Below are positions 1,975-10,479 of a stretch of 64,000 bases of DNA, in pieces. Source of the stretch: Escherichia phage OES_C-1; the sequence record PQ553088; one strand, given 5' to 3'. The notes under the pieces were generated by a model, which made no database searches, was not told the origin of the DNA, and saw only the letters and a list, made by a program, of their open reading frames with translations. Every line of letters begins with the position of its first letter. The stretch's first letter is position 1. Made by a program: the position numbers and the translations under genes.

Positions 1975-2512
1975 TTACTATTTCCAAAAGTTTATTATTT
2001 TTAAGGTAATTAGCCTTTTCTAGGACTTCAGAAGCATATTTAGAACCTGCTTTAACATTCCATCCCGAATTATAAGATGATATTGCTTTTCTTATATCAC
2101 CCTTATGTATATTTAACCAATAAGAAAGTTCAATGTACGCCCAGGAAGCTGAATTGGACCGTTTATTCAACATTCTTTTTATTTCAGCATCGGTCATATT
2201 ATAACCAAGTTCCTTGACTCTCGCTCGCATAGTAGGCAAATAATTTTGGAACATTCCATAGGCATGATGCTTTGGTTTAGATTTTAAATTAACTCCGGCA
2301 GAGCTTTCTTGCCACAAAATAGCAGCCATTATATGACCCAATCCGCTCTTATGGATGTTTTTGTGTGTTTTATATTTTCCATCCTTAGAAAATTGTTCCC
2401 CGAATTGATACGCGTAACGCATGTTATCGAGTTGGACATTACTGAAAGTATGCTCGGAGCTATGTGCCATCATTGAAATGGCCAATAGACCAGCGAGTAG
2501 TGCTTTTCTCAT
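1967..2512 (-). CDS. secreted lytic transglycosylase-like protein (SLT family)
   Basis: 181 aa; signal-peptide-like N-terminus; motifs LWQESS, GMFQ and SSYNSG resemble SLT catalytic motifs. Confidence 0.6.
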   Translation of the reverse strand: MRKALLAGLLAISMMAHSSEHTFSNVQLDNMRYAYQFGEQFSKDGKYKTHKNIHKSGLGHIMAAILWQESSAGVNLKSKPKHHAYGMFQNYLPTMRARVKELGYNMTDAEIKRMLNKRSNSASWAYIELSYWLNIHKGDIRKAISSYNSGWNVKAGSKYASEVLEKANYLKNNKLLEIVND

Positions 2513-2519
2513 GCTTACC

Positions 2520-2981
2520 TCATTGAGTTTTAATTACTGCTTTAGAAGCCTTTCCTGGTAAACGACGACTGTTGATAATTGCCATCCTGCACTGAAGTGA
2601 CGGGTCTTTGAACTTCTCGTTAGGTTTACAAACTGTAAATCCAAGCCAAAGATTTCCATCAGTGATTTCTAAACGTCCAGGACGATATTCAATCCCATCA
2701 ATAAAATCCTCGTCAATATCAGGGCGTGGAGGCATACTCAGGAATTCATTAACTTCTAAAACATGGTCTTTTATTTTATGGAATAATTCAAAAACATATG
2801 TCTCATCAATCTCCCGTTGAATTGCACGATCAAGAAGATGTTGAGAATATTTTAGATGAAACGATGAGACCCCTGCTGCTTTTGATGCCTCACGAATCTC
2901 ATTGTTAATTTGACGAAACTCCGACTCAAAGTGACGACGGAGCTTATTTCGACGGATAAAAACTTCTGTGTTGATAGTCAT
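2520..2981 (-). CDS. regB: RegB site-specific endoribonuclease
   Basis: 153 aa, same length as T4 RegB; position between tk and denV. Confidence 0.75.
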   Translation of the reverse strand: MTINTEVFIRRNKLRRHFESEFRQINNEIREASKAAGVSSFHLKYSQHLLDRAIQREIDETYVFELFHKIKDHVLEVNEFLSMPPRPDIDEDFIDGIEYRPGRLEITDGNLWLGFTVCKPNEKFKDPSLQCRMAIINSRRLPGKASKAVIKTQ

Positions 2982-3040
2982 GTTATTCTCCTCTTAACTG
3001 ATAGAAAAATTATACCACAGTCAAGAGGAAAAGTAAACAG

Positions 3041-3319
3041 TTATTCTTTAAATCTAATCAATTTATTCATAGACTTTGAAACTTCTGCACGGACCTCATG
3101 TAGGTTTTTAAGCTGTTCAAGACGCTGCTCATAGTAAGCAATTTCATCTTCTTCGAGACAGTCCTGTGAATCTTCTTTAAGATAGCGTGCATAGTCCTGG
3201 AAAGCGTTACGGACTACTTCCTGGAAGTCATCAAGACTTTGAATTTTCTTAGGAGCAACAGATACACGACGAGGGGCAGTATAATACTCATAACCAAACC
3301 CTGCGCTTAATTGAGCCAT
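3041..3319 (-). CDS. hypothetical protein (vs.3 position)
   Basis: Track ORF 3041..3361 trimmed to ATG at 3319 (TAATG coupling with upstream stop); start uncertain. Confidence 0.4.
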
Positions 3320-3585
3320 TAATATTTTTCCTCTGGTTGGAACACAGCACGACAAGCCCACATACTGGCTTCTTTGAGTTTTGTTTTAGCAATAGTTAAC
3401 TGATCGAGGCTTTCAGCATAATTCTTTGCGAATTCACAGTCTTCACAATTATCTAGCGCTTCCCAGAATTCATCATATAAAGCATCAAAGATAAGTCCTA
3501 AACGAACTTCAGCGTCTTTGATAGCATTCACTTTACCGATTTTCTCTTCAGTATGTGGCTTATAACCCTTAATGTCTTCAATCAT
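3319..3585 (-). CDS. hypothetical small protein at the T4 vs.4 position (possible Acb2-like cyclic-oligonucleotide sponge)
   Basis: Track start at 3621 is TTG; ATG at 3585 is preceded by GAGGAAG; alternative ATG at 3615; functional call by synteny only. Confidence 0.4.
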
Positions 3586-3799
3586 ATTTGACTTCCTCAC
3601 CAGTACATAAATCATATTCAACTAAACGAATAGGTTCATGAATGCCATATCCCTGAACAGAAATTTCTGTCGTAGGATAAATTCCACTAATATCACCCAT
3701 GTTCCACGCTTCATTAAATTGCTGTTCGCCTGAATTACTAAACCATTCGGCGAAAGCATTTAGCACATCTTCAGAACCTTCAATAATTATCTTTGTCAT
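3578..3799 (-). CDS. hypothetical protein, 73 aa
   Basis: ATG at 3797-3799 forms TAATG overlap with the stop of the GrcA-like gene. Confidence 0.5.
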   Translation of the reverse strand: MTKIIIEGSEDVLNAFAEWFSNSGEQQFNEAWNMGDISGIYPTTEISVQGYGIHEPIRLVEYDLCTGEEVKYD

Positions 3800-4155
3800 T
3801 ACAGGCTCTCAGTAAAGGTACGAGCGATAACGTCGCGCTGCTGTTCCGGAGTCAGAGAGTTAAAGCGAACTGCATAACCGGATACACGGATGGTCAGCTG
3901 CGGATATTTTTCCGGATGCTTAACTGCATCTTCCAGAGTTTCACGACGCAGAACGTTAACGTTCAGGTGTTGACCACCTTCAATTTTAACTGTAGGCTGT
4001 GTTTCAATTTCACGGGCATGCAAACCATAGAAAATTTCTGGGTCTACAAAAGAGTCCTCTTTAAAGGTTTTAGAAACAATAATTCGTGCTTGAATACCAT
4101 CTTCAAAATAAATAGTACCTTTATGTGTGCCTTCAAGAATTTGATATGCTTTCAT
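3799..4155 (-). CDS. autonomous glycyl-radical cofactor protein (GrcA/YfiD-like)
   Basis: 118 aa; C-terminal half ...[59 protein letters not shown] carries the RVSGYAVRF glycyl-radical motif and matches E. coli YfiD as recalled; this half is GC-richer than the rest. Confidence 0.8.
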
Positions 4156-4161
4156 ATAACC

Positions 4162-4491
4162 TCAATTAGAAAATAAATTTATCCAAGATTGTTCTTTAAT
4201 TAAAAATGGCTCAGAATCATATGCCATTAAACTTTGGGTGATTAGTCCTTTAAAAGGACCATCAATAAATTCCATAGTAAAATATGGAATTTTATTCATT
4301 AACCTTGCATTAGGAGCAGTGCACAAAACTCTGCATCCTTTGAATACACCTTTTTGTAATTTGTATTGCTTGGGATAAAATTCGCTCAAGACGTTGTTAT
4401 TTGCCAAAATTTCAAAATGATTCACCAATTTATTTTTAATAGTTTTTGGCGAAAAATAAAGATATTCGAAAAGTTGCGTATCTGTCATCAT
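4162..4491 (-). CDS. hypothetical protein (vs.7 position)
   Basis: Track ORF 4162..4542; ATG at 4491 gives ATGA overlap with upstream stop; ATG at 4542 also possible. Confidence 0.4.
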   Translation of the reverse strand: MMTDTQLFEYLYFSPKTIKNKLVNHFEILANNNVLSEFYPKQYKLQKGVFKGCRVLCTAPNARLMNKIPYFTMEFIDGPFKGLITQSLMAYDSEPFLIKEQSWINLFSN

Positions 4492-5075
4492 TGCATTCCA
4501 ATTACGAAAAACTGCGGACGAGTAATACCGCCAATGCAGCATTTACTATTACAGCAGTGTTGCACAGTTTCAATATGAATATCGTAAATTTTATCCATAT
4601 CAGGAGATTTAACAGGCTCATCGATTATATACAAAATTCGCGAAAGAGATAAACCTCTGAACTTGCTTCCTTTATTACCGATAAAACTACGGACAGAATC
4701 AGTAAATAAGCGGAATCGAATATCATCACTAGAATAACGAGAAAATTCTTTTTTAATGTGGCCTGCAGAAATTTTAGCGTAAGCTGAAGTATTAGAAAGA
4801 ACAATAACTGTTCCACCGTCATACAGCCAATTAGCAGCAAAGTTAGTCACAGCAGTTGATTTACCGGATTGACGTCCACCGTCTAGTCGAAGTGTGCAAT
4901 ACTGCTTAAGTAAGTCTTCAAATGGTGGGATATATTCGTTTTTACAAATTTCTTCTACTCTAGCATCAGAATGGTGTGTAAAAGCATTCATCAGGGATAG
5001 ATAAGGACCAGTTAAAAATGTTCTCATTTTATTCTCTCTAAATTTGGGCCATTCCATGGCGCATGAATTGTCCAT
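4488..5075 (-). CDS. P-loop (Walker A) protein, function unknown
   Basis: 195 aa; GGRQSGKST motif; alternative in-frame ATGs at 5057 and 5027. Confidence 0.5.
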   Translation of the reverse strand: MDNSCAMEWPKFRENKMRTFLTGPYLSLMNAFTHHSDARVEEICKNEYIPPFEDLLKQYCTLRLDGGRQSGKSTAVTNFAANWLYDGGTVIVLSNTSAYAKISAGHIKKEFSRYSSDDIRFRLFTDSVRSFIGNKGSKFRGLSLSRILYIIDEPVKSPDMDKIYDIHIETVQHCCNSKCCIGGITRPQFFVIGMQ

Positions 5076-5172
5076 TTCTGTATTTACCCATTACCGCACT
5101 TGGGCTCGACCTTATTACAGGTTGGCGGGAATCCCTCATAGAATCATGAGGTCCAGGTTATTCCCATGTTAT
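5076..5172 (-). other. GC-rich structured intergenic element downstream of denV
   Basis: Minus-sense nested inverted repeats GGGAAT...CCTCAT-GATTCT-ATGAGG...ATTCCC; GC content far above the local AT-rich background; no U-tract. Confidence 0.3.
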
Positions 5173-5589
5173 TTAAATGTAAATATTTTTGCCGTAATAC
5201 TTATACCAGTGTGGCTTCATTAAAATTTTTTCATCGAGTCGTTGTTGACTCAACTTAATAGCTGATTTGCATGGATTATAATCATTTTTCCATTCTACTG
5301 GAATATCGCTGATGTCAGGAACTTCAGTATCTTTTATACTGAACCCGCGTTTTAAGCATTCCGTTATAATGTCCGATTGACGCTTTCGCAAAAATTCTAA
5401 CTTATCGTAAAAGAAAGTAACATGACCAGAACCTAAAATAAATTTAGAAGATATTTTAAAATCTTTAGCGCGCTTACCGTTTGCCACATGCTTACGAACT
5501 ATACCAAAAACACGTGGTAATTCACGATACTCAGCCATAAGATGTTGGTCGGTCAGTTCAGAAACAAGTGTTAAATTGATACGAGTCAT
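5173..5589 (-). CDS. denV: endonuclease V (pyrimidine-dimer DNA glycosylase)
   Basis: 138 aa from ATG at 5589 with GGAGGAA upstream; [12 protein letters not shown]...WYKYYGK matches T4 endo V as recalled; track start at 5601 is TTG. Confidence 0.9.
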
Positions 5590-5647: not shown

Positions 5648-6450
<803 letters not shown>

Positions 6451-6906
6451 TTAAAAGAGGTTGTTCATTATTCGGTAAAGTGAAGGACCCATCACATATT
6501 GCCACTGGGTACGAGGAATAAGAGCAAAAGCGTCCATCTCTGGAATCATAATGCCATCTTTATTTTCAAAATAAGACTCACAATGGCAATTTCTAAACAT
6601 CTCATGCTCTACTGGAATCGTATAATAAAATAACTGTAAGTCTTTATTACTAGAATATTTAAATACACCTAGGTCTTCTAGAAGGTCTGGATTATAATTG
6701 CTAAAACCAGTCTCTTCTAAACATTCTCTTCGTGCTGCATCTAGTGCGCTTAAATCAGAATTTTCTATACGGCCCTTTGGAATATCCCAGCGATGGGCCA
6801 TCATTCCAGGCTTACGAGAACCGGTAACCCGACCCATAAATAAATCTTTGTCTTCTGTCATAAAGATAATACCAGCTGATAATGTTTTCATTTTAATTTC
6901 CTGCAT
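6451..6906 (-). CDS. nudE: Nudix hydrolase
   Basis: 151 aa; Nudix box GRIENSDLSALDAARRECLEETG; alternative ATGA-coupled start at 6891. Confidence 0.8.
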   Translation of the reverse strand: MQEIKMKTLSAGIIFMTEDKDLFMGRVTGSRKPGMMAHRWDIPKGRIENSDLSALDAARRECLEETGFSNYNPDLLEDLGVFKYSSNKDLQLFYYTIPVEHEMFRNCHCESYFENKDGIMIPEMDAFALIPRTQWQYVMGPSLYRIMNNLF

Positions 6907-7376
6907 TCAGTGATAAAGTTATTTAAATTTTGAGTATATTTCTTTTCATCAAAAATCTTTTGTTGTCTGCGTAGCCGCCATGGCATTTCAATGAACGTGT
7001 ACCATATCCCAGATAATATTGCTGCTGTAAAAATATTAACAAGTATGGTTAAAAGAATCCAATCTCCTATTCTGTCCATTGGATTTTTTATAAAAAAGTA
7101 AAATACGAATGATGTCACAGGAAGACTAATAATATACCACAGAATCATAATCTTATCTGTGAACCAATCAGCGTTCGTTAACTTAGCGCGACCATTATAA
7201 ATACACACGAATTTATCATCTGTTATAGTAGATGGCTTAACTGGTTGATATCCCATTCTAAACTCCCTAATCAACAAATTTTTCATATCTTCGGAACAGC
7301 CATTCCAGTCAACTCTATCAACTGGAATGCCATCATCCCCATCATCTAAATCATACCAGCGAGTTTTTAAAATCAT
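6888..7376 (-). CDS. membrane-protein cassette 4 (N-terminal soluble part plus 2 predicted TM helices; C-terminal ...NFITECRKLK)
   Basis: 162 aa; hydrophobic stretches; ATGA overlap with upstream gene. Confidence 0.6.
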   Translation of the reverse strand: MILKTRWYDLDDGDDGIPVDRVDWNGCSEDMKNLLIREFRMGYQPVKPSTITDDKFVCIYNGRAKLTNADWFTDKIMILWYIISLPVTSFVFYFFIKNPMDRIGDWILLTILVNIFTAAILSGIWYTFIEMPWRLRRQQKIFDEKKYTQNLNNFITECRKLK

Positions 7377-7735
7377 TTGATTTTCCTACAATCACTCACA
7401 AACTCTTTCATTGATTCATTTTCAATATAAGACATGTAGTTATTATATTCTTTTAATTGTATTTTGTAATCCTTTTTTCTTTGCCAATTTATTTTAAAAT
7501 TATCATAATGAAAATATAAAATGATACTAAAGAATGAAAATAATGAAATTGCTATAGTATAGTGAAGTTCACTCCAAACTTCTATTATATTTACTGTGCT
7601 GTCAATGTTTAAAATAAGACAGTCAATTAACAATCCAAAAAGACTACCCGCAAGAGCTGCAGCCAACGCCACAGCAAAAATTAAAAATGACTCAGAAAAC
7701 GAATATTTGACTTTATTTAGTTTTGGCTTTTGCAT
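7373..7735 (-). CDS. membrane-protein cassette 3 (2 predicted TM helices; C-terminal ...EFVSDCRKIK)
   Basis: 120 aa; hydrophobic stretches; ATG at 7733-7735. Confidence 0.6.
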   Translation of the reverse strand: MQKPKLNKVKYSFSESFLIFAVALAAALAGSLFGLLIDCLILNIDSTVNIIEVWSELHYTIAISLFSFFSIILYFHYDNFKINWQRKKDYKIQLKEYNNYMSYIENESMKEFVSDCRKIK

Positions 7736-8109
7736 CGTGATTCCTTAACAAATTTCATAATTTCATCAAATTCATACGCGGCAAGTTTAAACTGGTGTTC
7801 CTTTTTAATCTTTTTACACTGTGCTTTCCAATCACGTACACGTTTACGATAATGTCTTCCTTGATACCAGTATCCTACCCAATTTACAGGTACTAATAAA
7901 AGTGGAACTATTAATGGAAGAATTAGCATTAACACAAGTATTTCGCCAGAATCAATATCAGTCATAACATCTAAAACACCTCCAATAATCAATAGAATTA
8001 CAAATGATATGAGTATAACAGGACCTATTAATACATCAGTAGAAATTAGCTGGCGCTTTAATTCATACTTTAAGGGTTTACTTGGAAGATACATTGATGG
8101 CTTTGACAT
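7717..8109 (-). CDS. membrane-protein cassette 2 (2 predicted TM helices; C-terminal ...KFVKESRCKSQN)
   Basis: Track start 8130 is TTG; ATG at 8109 is preceded by AAGGAA lying inside the upstream gene's C-terminal codons. Confidence 0.55.
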   Translation of the reverse strand: MSKPSMYLPSKPLKYELKRQLISTDVLIGPVILISFVILLIIGGVLDVMTDIDSGEILVLMLILPLIVPLLLVPVNWVGYWYQGRHYRKRVRDWKAQCKKIKKEHQFKLAAYEFDEIMKFVKESRCKSQN

Positions 8110-8686
8110 ATTCTCTACATTCCTTAACAAATTTTTCTAATAATAAATCGCTTTCAAAATTAGGATTTTCCACGAATTTATCAAAAAGATCATCAACGAT
8201 AGTTAAGATATTCTTTTTACTAAGAATACGCTTATTTTCATATTTTGTTTCAGAGTCAACTATAAGAGTAAAGAAATATTTCTTTCCCTGAAATTTTACC
8301 GTAGTATCAATATAGAACAAATTTGACTTTTGTAAATTACGTTTAAACCATGCGTCACTTAAACTATAAACGCCAAGATAATCATAATCGTCATTTAAAT
8401 AACAAACTGTCCATTCAGGAGAAATGAAATCAGTAAATTCAACATCAAAATCACACGTCAATGAATGAATTGATTCAATACTTTTAATGAGTATTCCAGG
8501 ACGTATTAAAGACTTTTTACCTCTAGAAAATCTTCCGGAAAGGCTTTCATCAGTTTCATATGAAGACCCCCAATAGTAATTACGTCCTTCTGCCATGCGT
8601 TTAAGAGCATTTAGTAATTGGTCTGGAACATCAACCTGTCTTTGGAACTCTTCAAACATTGAATTGAAATCATTTTGCATTCTCAT
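8078..8686 (-). CDS. cassette 1, 202 aa soluble protein, function unknown (C-terminal ...KFVKECREYVKAINVSSK)
   Basis: ATG at 8686; shares the C-terminal FVKECR junction motif with the three downstream cassettes. Confidence 0.6.
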   Translation of the reverse strand: MRMQNDFNSMFEEFQRQVDVPDQLLNALKRMAEGRNYYWGSSYETDESLSGRFSRGKKSLIRPGILIKSIESIHSLTCDFDVEFTDFISPEWTVCYLNDDYDYLGVYSLSDAWFKRNLQKSNLFYIDTTVKFQGKKYFFTLIVDSETKYENKRILSKKNILTIVDDLFDKFVENPNFESDLLLEKFVKECREYVKAINVSSK

Positions 8687-8706: not shown

Positions 8707-8725
8707 AGGGGCCGAAGCCCCTTAT
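8707..8725 (-). repeat. hairpin aggggccgaagccccttat; exact 19-nt copy also at 50511-50529
   Basis: GGGGC-CGAA-GCCCC stem-loop; identical 19-mer at two distant loci. Confidence 0.6.
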
Positions 8726-8727
8726 CA

Positions 8728-9321
8728 TTATTTCAGAGAATTAATGTATTCCTGAACATCGGCAGAGGTAGTTTCAACCCCAGAAATATTACCGTTAAAG
8801 GTTTCAACTCGAGCAAGGGTATCTTCAATATCAACCTTAGTCAGTGCTGCAATTTCAACTACATCATCAGCAGTACTAATTCCAAGGGCATTTGCTGCAC
8901 GAGTTTCACGGATATATTCCAATTTAACCGCAAGTTCTTGACGAGCATCATCTAACTCAACTACTTTCTTGGCGATTTCAATTCGCATTTCAGCATAACC
9001 GTCAGCCTTAGTAGTCAACTGCTCAGCTGTTCGACGATATAGTAAACCGAGTTTAGCATGCATTGTTACATCTTGGCCTTCGGAAAGAAGTTTACGAATT
9101 TCACGCTCTTTTGATTCGGCCTGTCGATTCTTTTCGATAACAAGTTCACGAATACGTTTTTCTTCATTAATAGATTTAACAGAAGCAGTTTTTAGATCTT
9201 TAATTTTATCAAGTAGTTTTGCTGCTGCAGCAGTATACTGTTCTTCAACAGATAGATTTTTAGCCATAGCAGAACCAAGTTTAGTGCGAATAAACTCAAC
9301 AATTTTCTTCAGTGTGTTCAT
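8728..9321 (-). CDS. coiled-coil protein, function unknown (weak PspA/IM30-like pattern)
   Basis: 197 aa, charged heptad-like sequence; homology not verified. Confidence 0.55.
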
Positions 9322-9915: not shown

Positions 9916-10479
9916 TTATTTACCTAGTTTACTTATTATAGCTTCTGCAGCAGCTTTTAGCTTAGATGCAGTGTTAATACGATTTTTAATTTCAGTATAC
10001 GCATCGCCAAGAACATCAAGGCTATCAGAATAAACACTTACACTATTGCGTTCGCTATTTGAAATAGAACCTTTAGTTTTGCGGTCAAAATCGGTGTACA
10101 CGTCTTGAAGATCGCGGGCTGCCTTCTTTGCATCATCCAATGCATCAAGAGCTTTATTCAAAGCATTAACGTATTTTTTAGTGTCGAACATATTCTTAGA
10201 AATTTTAACAGGTGCGCGTTCAGGAGTAGCTAACACAGATTTAGGAACCTGAGCGCCAGATGCCAATTTCTTAGAAATTTTGAAAAATGCTTTATTGAAT
10301 TTATTTTCTTGACTCATTGTAAAAGAACTATTATCGATGTTGTACATTTCAATAGCTTTAGCTTTCCACTTAAGAAAATCGCCGCGGTCTTTTGGGTCCA
10401 ATTGGAAGAATACTTTAGTAAGATCTGCTTCAGATGGTAATTTTGCTGCTTCGGTTAAAAATTCGGCATAGGTTTTCAT
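9916..10479 (-). CDS. internal protein (ipIII-like) with capsid-targeting leader
   Basis: 187 aa starting MKTYAEFLTEAAKL (IP-family leader). Confidence 0.65.
   Translation of the reverse strand: MKTYAEFLTEAAKLPSEADLTKVFFQLDPKDRGDFLKWKAKAIEMYNIDNSSFTMSQENKFNKAFFKISKKLASGAQVPKSVLATPERAPVKISKNMFDTKKYVNALNKALDALDDAKKAARDLQDVYTDFDRKTKGSISNSERNSVSVYSDSLDVLGDAYTEIKNRINTASKLKAAAEAIISKLGK

Follow-up and report, generated by a model that had tools for sequence, protein, structure and literature searches.

The locus immediately upstream of nudE in Escherichia phage OES_C-1 raises the question of why four consecutive minus-strand genes, the counterparts of T4 e.5, e.4, e.3 and e.2, should encode nearly the same short peptide at or close to their C-termini, and whether it is this peptide that is conserved or the DNA beneath it. 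The stretch analyzed (hereafter the window) comprises 64 kb of the 170 kb genome. An initial annotation of the window interpreted the shared tail as a nucleic-acid device, both ribosome-binding site (RBS) and homology handle, that joins unrelated, shuffled membrane-protein cassettes. Its description of the locus proved largely accurate, but a cassette-shuffling linker is not what the comparison with other phages points to. The best overall reading, which we consider probable, is that of a peptide signature, overlaid with an RBS and carried by known T4 genes.

The window can be assigned by its sequence to the genus Tequatrovirus. Between positions 6400 and 9400 its sequence is 100% identical to that of Escherichia phage OES_C-2, and most of this region is covered in 497 of 644 matching phage records. 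The order of genes on the one strand, e.6-e.5-e.4-e.3-e.2-nudE-e, is that of T4 (NC_000866), with overlaps alike, and the proteins of e.2-e.5 share 93–97% identity with T4 NP_049738-NP_049741. The four genes are evidently the already catalogued T4 orthologues e.2, e.3, e.4 and e.5 (UniProt Y06M, Y06N, Y06O and Y06P), and precomputed Pfam matches on homologues assign e.5 to PF26876 (Phage_T4_Y06P), e.4 to PF26873 (Phage_T4_Y06O) and e.2 to PF26896 (Phage_T4_Y06M). T4 gene lengths are kept exactly in e.5, e.4 and e.3, and differ in e.2. The coordinates given for the four genes in the initial annotation and the junction DNA quoted there agree with the sequence, but on the minus strand the genes lie upstream (5') of nudE, where that annotation had them downstream. 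Together with nudE they form a gap-free block of five overlapping cistrons:

8078..8686, minus strand: e.5, 202 amino acids (aa), soluble; the predicted C-terminal helix (residues 181-197) bears LLLEKFVKECREYV; the final 32 nucleotides (nt) overlap e.4
7717..8109, minus strand: e.4, 130 aa, a predicted transmembrane (TM) hairpin followed by a cytosolic helix of ~50 aa with EIMKFVKESRCKSQN at its end; the final 19 nt overlap e.3
7373..7735, minus strand: e.3, 120 aa, a predicted TM hairpin and a cytosolic tail ending in SMKEFVSDCRKIK before the stop codon; ATGA overlap with e.2
6888..7376, minus strand: e.2, 162 aa, intact, with a 75-aa N-terminal domain, a predicted TM hairpin and a tail ending in NLNNFITECRKLK before the stop codon; ATGA overlap with nudE
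6451..6891, minus strand: nudE, with a NUDIX Pfam match; final cistron of the overlapping block

The core of the tail is encoded as follows:

8114..8131, minus strand: e.5 tail codons TTT GTT AAG GAA TGT AGA (F-V-K-E-C-R)
7735..7752, minus strand: e.4 tail codons TTT GTT AAG GAA TCA CGA (F-V-K-E-S-R)
7385..7402, minus strand: e.3 tail codons TTT GTG AGT GAT TGT AGG (F-V-S-D-C-R); left arm of the e.2 deletion repeat (see later)
6900..6917, minus strand: e.2 tail codons TTT ATC ACT GAA TGC AGG (F-I-T-E-C-R); right arm of the same repeat

The reported sharing of a tail is real and non-random. Six-frame translation of the window gave exactly four matches to F[VI]x[ED][CS]R, all at the C-termini of e.5, e.4, e.3 and e.2, against a mean of 0.42 in base shuffles. 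A DNA pattern for F-[VIM]-x-[ED]-C-R likewise found four sites in the window (shuffle mean 0.17; 0 of 100 shuffles reached four), namely the tails of e.5, e.3 and e.2 and an antisense site within a 485-aa plus-strand open reading frame (ORF) taken to be fibritin (wac), which is a chance match; there was no match to it in the remaining ~106 kb of the genome. The four genes had been said to end in the tail, and in e.3 and e.2 it does lie near the stop codon, but after the motif e.5 continues for 11 residues and e.4 for five.

The syntenic regions of other genera were fetched and inspected for the tail. The motif Φ-x-x-F-[IV]-x-E-C-R (Φ, hydrophobic) is carried by 30 proteins in nine genera, the four of the window and 26 in eight other genera, and lies at most 25 residues from the C-terminus in family members, the four window proteins included. 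Conserved positions are the hydrophobic residue at -3 (present in 20 of the 23 proteins whose codons were compared, see below), F (rarely W), I or V, usually E, C, and R (rarely K). Every Tevenvirinae region examined (seven genera) had the tail, on more genes than in T4:

RB69 (Mosigvirus): e.5, e.4, e.3 and e.2, with an extra two-TM protein, ORF133c, whose C-terminus is NFIKECRGK
VR26 (Gaprivervirus): four members
KIT01 (Dhakavirus): e.2
KP179 (Jiaodavirus): four members, one without annotation
CC31 and myPSH1140 (Karamvirus): six members
LC53 (Winklervirus): four members
Aeromonas phage Riv-10, outside the subfamily: the protein after e.6, LFVDYCRR
RB43, outside the subfamily: the protein after e.6, KFIHSCKK

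In Tevenvirinae, Biquartavirus and Pseudotevenvirus the motif marks the e.5-type protein located after e.6, and within the seven Tevenvirinae genera also tandem two-TM paralogues (e.4, e.3, e.2, RB69 ORF133c, CC31 p139-p136 and others). No tail-bearing genes were found near nudE in RB43, the member of which adjoins e.6 elsewhere in the genome. Two members had escaped annotation: a 98-aa two-TM protein of KP179 with the C-terminus AWIRSCRK (6149-6445 of the fetched stretch), and a 221-aa protein at the e.5 position of Enterobacter phage myPSH1140, containing DFINYCRGQ (4156-4821 of the fetched stretch).

The distribution of the motif suggests that it is old, a protein family signature. It also bears on another alternative, that the similarity arises by chance or from base composition, the genome being AT-rich; in its favor, short chance repeats of comparable size are numerous in the DNA of this region, and the pattern was defined after the fact. 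Against coincidence speak the number of matches, four where 0.42 are expected, their placement at the C-terminus in each of a row of consecutive genes, and the absence of others from the 170 kb genome, and the recurrence of the motif at the same place in nine genera, among orthologues with as little as about 30% identity, effectively refutes it; we give it almost no credence.

Codon usage and junctions were compared across 23 motif-bearing proteins from six genera in order to separate the protein signal from that of the Shine-Dalgarno (SD) sequence. Codon positions 1 and 2 carry 1.0–2.0 bits of information, and position 3 of the x, E, C and R codons only 0.27–0.44 bits. Arginine is encoded by both codon families (AGA 7, AGG 4, CGA 3, CGT 6, CGC 1), cysteine by TGT (9) or TGC (8), and phenylalanine by TTT (16) or TTC (5). 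The claim that the SD of the next cistron sits inside the tail codons was borne out in 20 of the 23 proteins, where it occupies one of two registers. Register A has the SD in the x-E codons (AAG-GAA and similar), with the next ATG 17–23 nt past the Phe codon, while in register B it falls on the Arg codon and the one following (AGG-AAA, CGA-GGA, AGA-GGT) and the ATG lies 25–28 nt past the Phe codon. With few exceptions, lysine (AAG) at x is confined to register A, where the Arg codon varies freely and is often CGT; in register B the Arg codon reads AGG or xGA-GG. Both registers are seen in the window, where SD-like sites lie 5–10 nt before each ATG:

e.4 start: SD-like site TTAAGGAA in the K-E codons (AAGGAA) of the e.5 tail, 10 nt before the ATG at 8109
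e.3 start: SD TTAAGGAA in the K-E codons of the e.4 tail, spacing 5; the e.3 ATG overlaps the Arg codon
e.2 start: SD AGGAAA (R-K codons) in the e.3 tail
nudE start: SD AGGAAA in the e.2 tail, 6 nt upstream of ATG 6891

The C/R/K codons, which the initial annotation had identified as the SD throughout, thus serve in the e.3 and e.2 tails, but in the e.5 and e.4 tails the site lies in the K-E codons. With no space between one gene and the next, the SD occupies whichever motif codons are free, and it shapes only these free positions (x as Lys AAG, Arg as AGG). The motif is kept even where there is no start codon nearby: in CC31 p141 the next start is 83 nt away, in Riv-10 there is a 67 nt gap, and in RB43 the motif lies 25 residues before the stop codon. 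A constraint from ribosome binding does not account for these features, as the third codon positions carry little information, the Arg codon switches families, the SD uses two registers, and the motif persists without an adjacent start. The free wobble, the two registers and the persistence of the motif therefore argue that it is selected as protein, with F, I/V, C and R unexplained by the RBS.

This evidence bears directly on the view of the tail as a nucleic-acid device. The SD within the motif codons at 20 of 23 junctions and the presence of ATGA overlaps are what such a device would need, but F, I/V, C and R stay whether the SD is in one register, in the other or outside the motif altogether, and wobble freedom, the switching of Arg codons and the retention of the motif far from any start codon are not expected if the nucleotides themselves were selected. 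A related candidate, sequestration of the RBS or another structured RNA element, was ruled out, as the junctions match no Rfam family and show no significant RNA structure.

The genes of the block overlap without intergenic space, as had been described, by 32 nt (e.5/e.4), 19 nt (e.4/e.3), 4 nt (e.3/e.2) and 4 nt (e.2/nudE); the reported ATGA overlaps are found at e.3/e.2 and e.2/nudE, but not at the two longer overlaps. Stop/start overlaps with an SD inside the upstream ORF, the arrangement expected of translational coupling, occur at the window junctions, and the tail genes are probably coupled in this way; independent initiation is also possible at these unstructured junctions. ATGA overlaps and SDs inside the upstream ORF are shared with translationally coupled cistrons of phage and bacterial operons, and the coupling architecture of the e.5-nudE block is in itself ordinary. 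It also bears on the start of nudE: because an SD precedes ATG 6891 and none precedes the ATG at 6906 annotated in T4 (MQEIKMKTL...), the start is most likely ATG 6891, at the ATGA overlap. The annotation of PP01 uses the equivalent, shorter form of nudE.

The 32 nt e.5/e.4 overlap (8078-8109) is dual-coding, and both of its peptides are conserved between T4 and RB69, the post-motif EYVKAINVSSK of e.5 and the N-terminal MSKPSMYLPSK of e.4. The same junction is a simple ATGA in KP179, which suggests that the e.5 stop codon was lost from such an arrangement in the T4/RB69/VR26 lineage.

The proximity of the motif to the junctions could also mean that the nascent tail acts in cis on the ribosome, by arrest or pausing at termination that controls reinitiation downstream. 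The motif does lie 17–28 nt before the next start in 19 of 23 cases, and its conserved residues are near stop/start overlaps. Known arrest peptides require a fixed distance to the P-site, however, and the distance from motif to stop codon ranges here from 0 to 25 residues; in addition, the motif is retained with the next gene 67–83 nt away and is part of a predicted amphipathic helix in folded proteins. We regard an effect of this kind as very unlikely.

The second half of the initial annotation's model, the homology handle, can be judged from rearrangements among Tequatroviruses. Throughout ~500 of these phages e.2-e.5 are 91–97% identical in DNA; of ~504 records, about 440 carry all four genes and about 64 (~13%) lack e.2. 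The deletion junction is identical in PP01, F13076 and T2 (GAGTTTGTGAGTGATTG joined to CAGGAAATTAAAATGA), its 5' part coming from the e.3 tail and its 3' part from the e.2 tail, and the crossover falls within TGCAGGAAA. In T4-type genomes 18 of 21 nt agree between these two tails, which in the window share a 24-mer at 71% identity. The loss of e.2 is a genuine, precise excision from tail to tail, for which the e.3 and e.2 tails acted as direct repeats in T2, PP01, F13076 and others. What is not seen is any maintenance of nucleotide identity, as 24 nt motif windows agree at 13.9 positions within a genome and at 13.3 between genomes, and a tail often resembles its orthologues more than its paralogues. 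A conserved DNA core at the junctions had also been reported; an exact 16-mer is indeed common to the e.5 and e.4 tails, but the repeats are short, and the region is rich in chance repeats of similar size. Across ~500 genomes, no deletion of e.4 has arisen from that 16-mer.

The only other rearrangement found within the genus, a rare one beside the common e.2 deletion, bypassed the tails. Phages vB_EcoM-UFV10 (OP555981), UFV05, 06, 09 and 11 carry an in-frame hybrid, e.4(1-31)::e.2(88-162), in place of e.4, e.3 and e.2 (2501-2821 of the stretch fetched for UFV10), a natural chimeric two-TM protein, and the crossover is a 6 nt microhomology, TCCTGT, in the P-V codons at the start of the first TM segment (TM1) of both genes. 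Between genera the gene content after the tails varies, as in RB69, where 3.1 kb lie between the e.3 tail and e.2, and these positions are also simply gene boundaries.

For the nucleic-acid device, then, stand the precise e.2 excision in ~13% of Tequatroviruses, the exact 16 nt repeat and the variable gene content after tails; against it stand the equal identity of tails within and between genomes, the inertness of the 16-mer, the UFV deletion outside the tail, and the relatedness of the proteins themselves, with e.4 and e.3 paralogous and the e.5-position proteins orthologous (see below). We consider the model unlikely as a whole. Nor do the genes constitute a modular cassette array, being ordinary T4 orthologues with one common presence/absence polymorphism. 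Two findings had been named beforehand as telling against the model; the four genes did turn out to be ordinary T4 e.2-e.5 orthologues, but the tail is not explained by RBS constraint. The tails are probably no specialized shuffling device, and would take part in rare illegitimate deletion as any short direct repeat might.

The closest published concept is modular shuffling mediated by PeSLs, which consist of intergenic σ70 promoters and terminator hairpins, lie at gene boundaries, and act as recombination sites at which whole ORFs are deleted or exchanged in variable regions of T4-like genomes (PMC2839356; Comeau et al. 2014, PMC4122927). Excision of e.2 between tails is an event of that kind, in that recombination between copies created a whole-ORF indel (e.2, ~64 of 504 records). 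The tail locus differs in having no intergenic DNA, promoter or hairpin at its junctions, in that its repeat is coding sequence kept for the peptide, and in that the array is stable within the genus but for the two deletions. Promoter-like matches were not enriched (27 found against 20.7 expected), and none fell at a junction.

The same comparisons address gene conversion among the tandem genes, by which concerted evolution would keep the tails similar with no selection on the peptide. It could account for the 16 identical nt of the e.5 and e.4 tails in Tequatrovirus, and for a two-codon extension, CRK[I/L]K, present in both the e.3 and the e.2 tail but missing from the orthologues of other genera. 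However, tails from one genome are no more alike than those from different genomes, orthologous tails are often closer than paralogous ones, and the motif is conserved in the single-copy settings of Riv-10 and RB43. We hold gene conversion to be very unlikely, and the equality of within- and between-genome identity to rule it out.

The intact e.2 of the window, with 162 aa, differs from that of the T4 reference, which has been shortened to 102 aa by frameshift (NC_000866, 2153-2461 of the fetched stretch; counterpart of window 6888-7376): one nucleotide was lost from an A-run (AAAAAATCC to AAAAATCC), with a compensating +1 ~80 nt further on. A two-piece e.2 was also found by tblastn in G9062, SG1 and AV121. 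The T4 frameshift and the deletion in T2 and PP01 suggest that e.2 is dispensable.

The proteins carrying the tail had been described as having unrelated N-terminal regions; their bodies are not unrelated. A comparison of thin profiles with hhalign gave a 48-column match between e.4 and e.3 (94.9% probability, E 4.6e-8) that reaches from the end of the second TM segment (TM2) to the tail, and e.3 matches the e.4 PHROG along its full length (E 0.013); these two are, by sequence, detectable paralogues. For e.3 and e.2, hhalign gave 87.5% probability over 19 columns, and BLASTP E 0.003 over 62 aa. Between e.5 and e.4, e.3 or e.2, hhalign aligned only 8–14 tail residues. The e.5-position proteins of different genera can nevertheless be linked after removal of the tail, by BLASTP matches between Jiaodavirus and Winklervirus (3.8e-9), Jiaodavirus and Biquartavirus (5.5e-7), Winklervirus and Karamvirus (4.9e-8), and Gaprivervirus and Jiaodavirus (1.3e-4), and Foldseek searches with the T4 e.5 model gave full-length matches in T4-like Klebsiella, Erwinia and Citrobacter phages. 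These proteins therefore appear to be one diverged, fast-evolving orthologous family, always placed right after the highly conserved e.6, with the tail as the best-conserved part. VR26 gp139 and the 196-aa protein of KP179 were considered as unrelated tail carriers and rejected on the strength of the same BLASTP chains and Foldseek matches, which indicate diverged orthologues.

A second conserved motif, [ED]-W-[KE]-x-[QK]-C, occurs in e.4 orthologues ~25 residues before the tail (residues about 92-101; about 7807-7836). BLASTP aligns it with the e.3 and e.2 tails (..DWKAQCKKIK with ..EFVSDCRKIK), and it may be the relic of an internal duplication of the tail.

Hydropathy analysis (Kyte-Doolittle) agrees with the description of three small two-TM proteins, with two segments each in e.4, e.3 and e.2, and none in e.5:

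e.4, minus strand: TM segments at about 7963-8019 and 7885-7941
e.3, minus strand: TM segments at about 7625-7681 and 7511-7567
e.2, minus strand: TM segments at about 7089-7145 and 7005-7061

The positive-inside rule predicts an N-in/C-in topology for all three. AlphaFold2 models e.4 as two helices, residues 24-49 and 54-128, so that TM2 continues as one helix to residue 128, and e.5 (mean pLDDT, the model confidence score, 64.5) with the tail as a helix at 181-197. The spacing of hydrophobic residues at -3, 0, +1 and +4 corresponds to one face of a helix. Under the peptide reading, the shared element would be a short amphipathic helix at the C-terminus, Φ-x-x-F-[I/V]-x-[E]-C-R(-K), which in e.4, e.3 and e.2 would tip the cytosolic helix after the TM hairpin and in e.5 would end a soluble domain. 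The next SD would be written into free motif codons in register A or B, with the RNA signal shaping the choice of codon and residue at x and Arg and leaving F, I/V, C and R unexplained; illegitimate deletion between the repeated tails would be a rare event, as in the clean removal of e.2 by a crossover within TGCAGGAAA.

Several points weigh against this reading. The regular expressions for the motif were set after the data had been seen, and the Cys is replaced by S, I or V in e.4 orthologues. Between e.2 and e.3 or e.4, and between e.5 and all the others, hhalign aligned only 8–19 tail columns, short of full-length paralogy, so that e.2 and e.5 may possibly have acquired the tail independently by recombination. 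A profile of the four window sequences does not capture the extent of the family: among 1.84 billion proteins it found only six at E ≤ 0.001, of which five were T4-type e.2, e.3 or e.4 clusters, the only ones recovered, and one aligned on the TM region only; the searches for homologous proteins likewise reached only close relatives. Both AlphaFold2 models are of modest confidence, built on shallow alignments. Finally, the one concrete idea for e.6, discussed as a partner below, namely that it is PspA-like, found no support, as hhalign detects no similarity.

What the peptide does is a matter on which we can offer a tentative proposal, less likely than not to be correct in this form: the tail may be a helix for docking or assembly, common to e.5 and the membrane paralogues, that brings them together or onto one partner on the cytoplasmic side of the inner membrane. 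The prime candidate for such a partner would be e.6, the conserved upstream neighbor of the tail-bearing e.5-position gene in eight genera:

8728..9321, minus strand: e.6, 197 aa, predicted coiled coil; genomic context and candidate partner only
8707..8722, minus strand: hairpin GGGGCUUCGGCCCC with a UUCG tetraloop, in the 41 nt gap between e.6 and e.5

The hairpin is the sole intergenic element of the e.6-nudE stretch and marks the 5' limit of the gap-free block. Kinship of e.6 with PspA was rejected, as hhalign against the E. coli protein gave 0.4% probability and there was no match to Pfam PspA_IM30. If the proposal were true, a previously unrecognized membrane module would exist across Straboviridae, with membrane subunits gained and lost between genera.

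Scans of e.2-e.6 with Pfam, PHROGs, NCBIfam and PADLOC returned families of unknown function only, with no above-threshold match in PADLOC, Pfam or NCBIfam to a defense or superinfection-exclusion family; a PDB sequence search with e.6 and e.2 gave nothing meaningful, and literature searches on e.2-e.6 found no functional data. The role in superinfection exclusion or host-defense interference raised in the initial annotation gained no supporting match: T4 encodes two small superinfection-exclusion proteins, Imm and Sp, which are membrane or periplasmic, and the e.2-e.5 proteins showed no sequence or profile similarity to any characterized family. In many GenBank records the homologues of e.3 and e.4 are named sulfurtransferase, those of e.5 phosphoserine phosphatase and those of e.6 host specificity protein; none of these names is backed by the profile searches.

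T4 is the best-studied large lytic phage, yet its genes e.2 to e.6 have no assigned function, and databases hold the four tail-bearing proteins as separate, unrelated families. Neither the shared tail motif nor the relationship of e.4 to e.3 is recorded in the family libraries or the literature searched. What is new is modest, a family signature on ordinary known T4 genes, and a specialized shuffling mechanism is not supported. The conserved peptide now ties the four T4 genes to one another and to relatives in at least nine genera, and its F, C and R residues give a concrete experimental handle on e.2-e.5. The locus is also a clean example of dual coding, in which some codon positions are set by a protein motif and the SD takes up those left free, in two registers. 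For annotation, the gains are the start of nudE at the ATGA, the frameshifted e.2 of T4, the members without annotation in other phages, and the recognition of unsupported GenBank names.

A short terminal peptide common to fast-diverging proteins is also known from the same hyperplastic neighborhood. The T4 capsid targeting sequence is a conserved N-terminal MKTY.EF... on diverse internal proteins encoded next to gene e; it is cleaved, and directs these proteins into the prohead. It differs from the tail described here in being N-terminal and cleaved, the tail being C-terminal and on inner-membrane proteins. T4 ipII and ipIII are absent between e and denV in this genome, as in W143; this interval is a known hypervariable internal-protein locus. 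Two minus-strand ORFs of the window, 5648-5929 and 9916-10479, start with MKTY(S/A)EFL..., which resembles the capsid targeting sequence of T4 internal proteins.

A second tandem array was seen directly after the e.3-like gene in four genera, and in none of the T4-type phages. It encodes small soluble proteins of 65–103 aa that terminate in W-V-S-S-S-x-x-C or W-x-x-S-S-C at the stop codon, followed by TAAGGAAAnnnnATG, and occupies positions 3121-3916 (RB69), 2271-3539 (VR26), 4320-4885 (LC53) and 4772-5325 (myPSH1140) of the fetched stretches.

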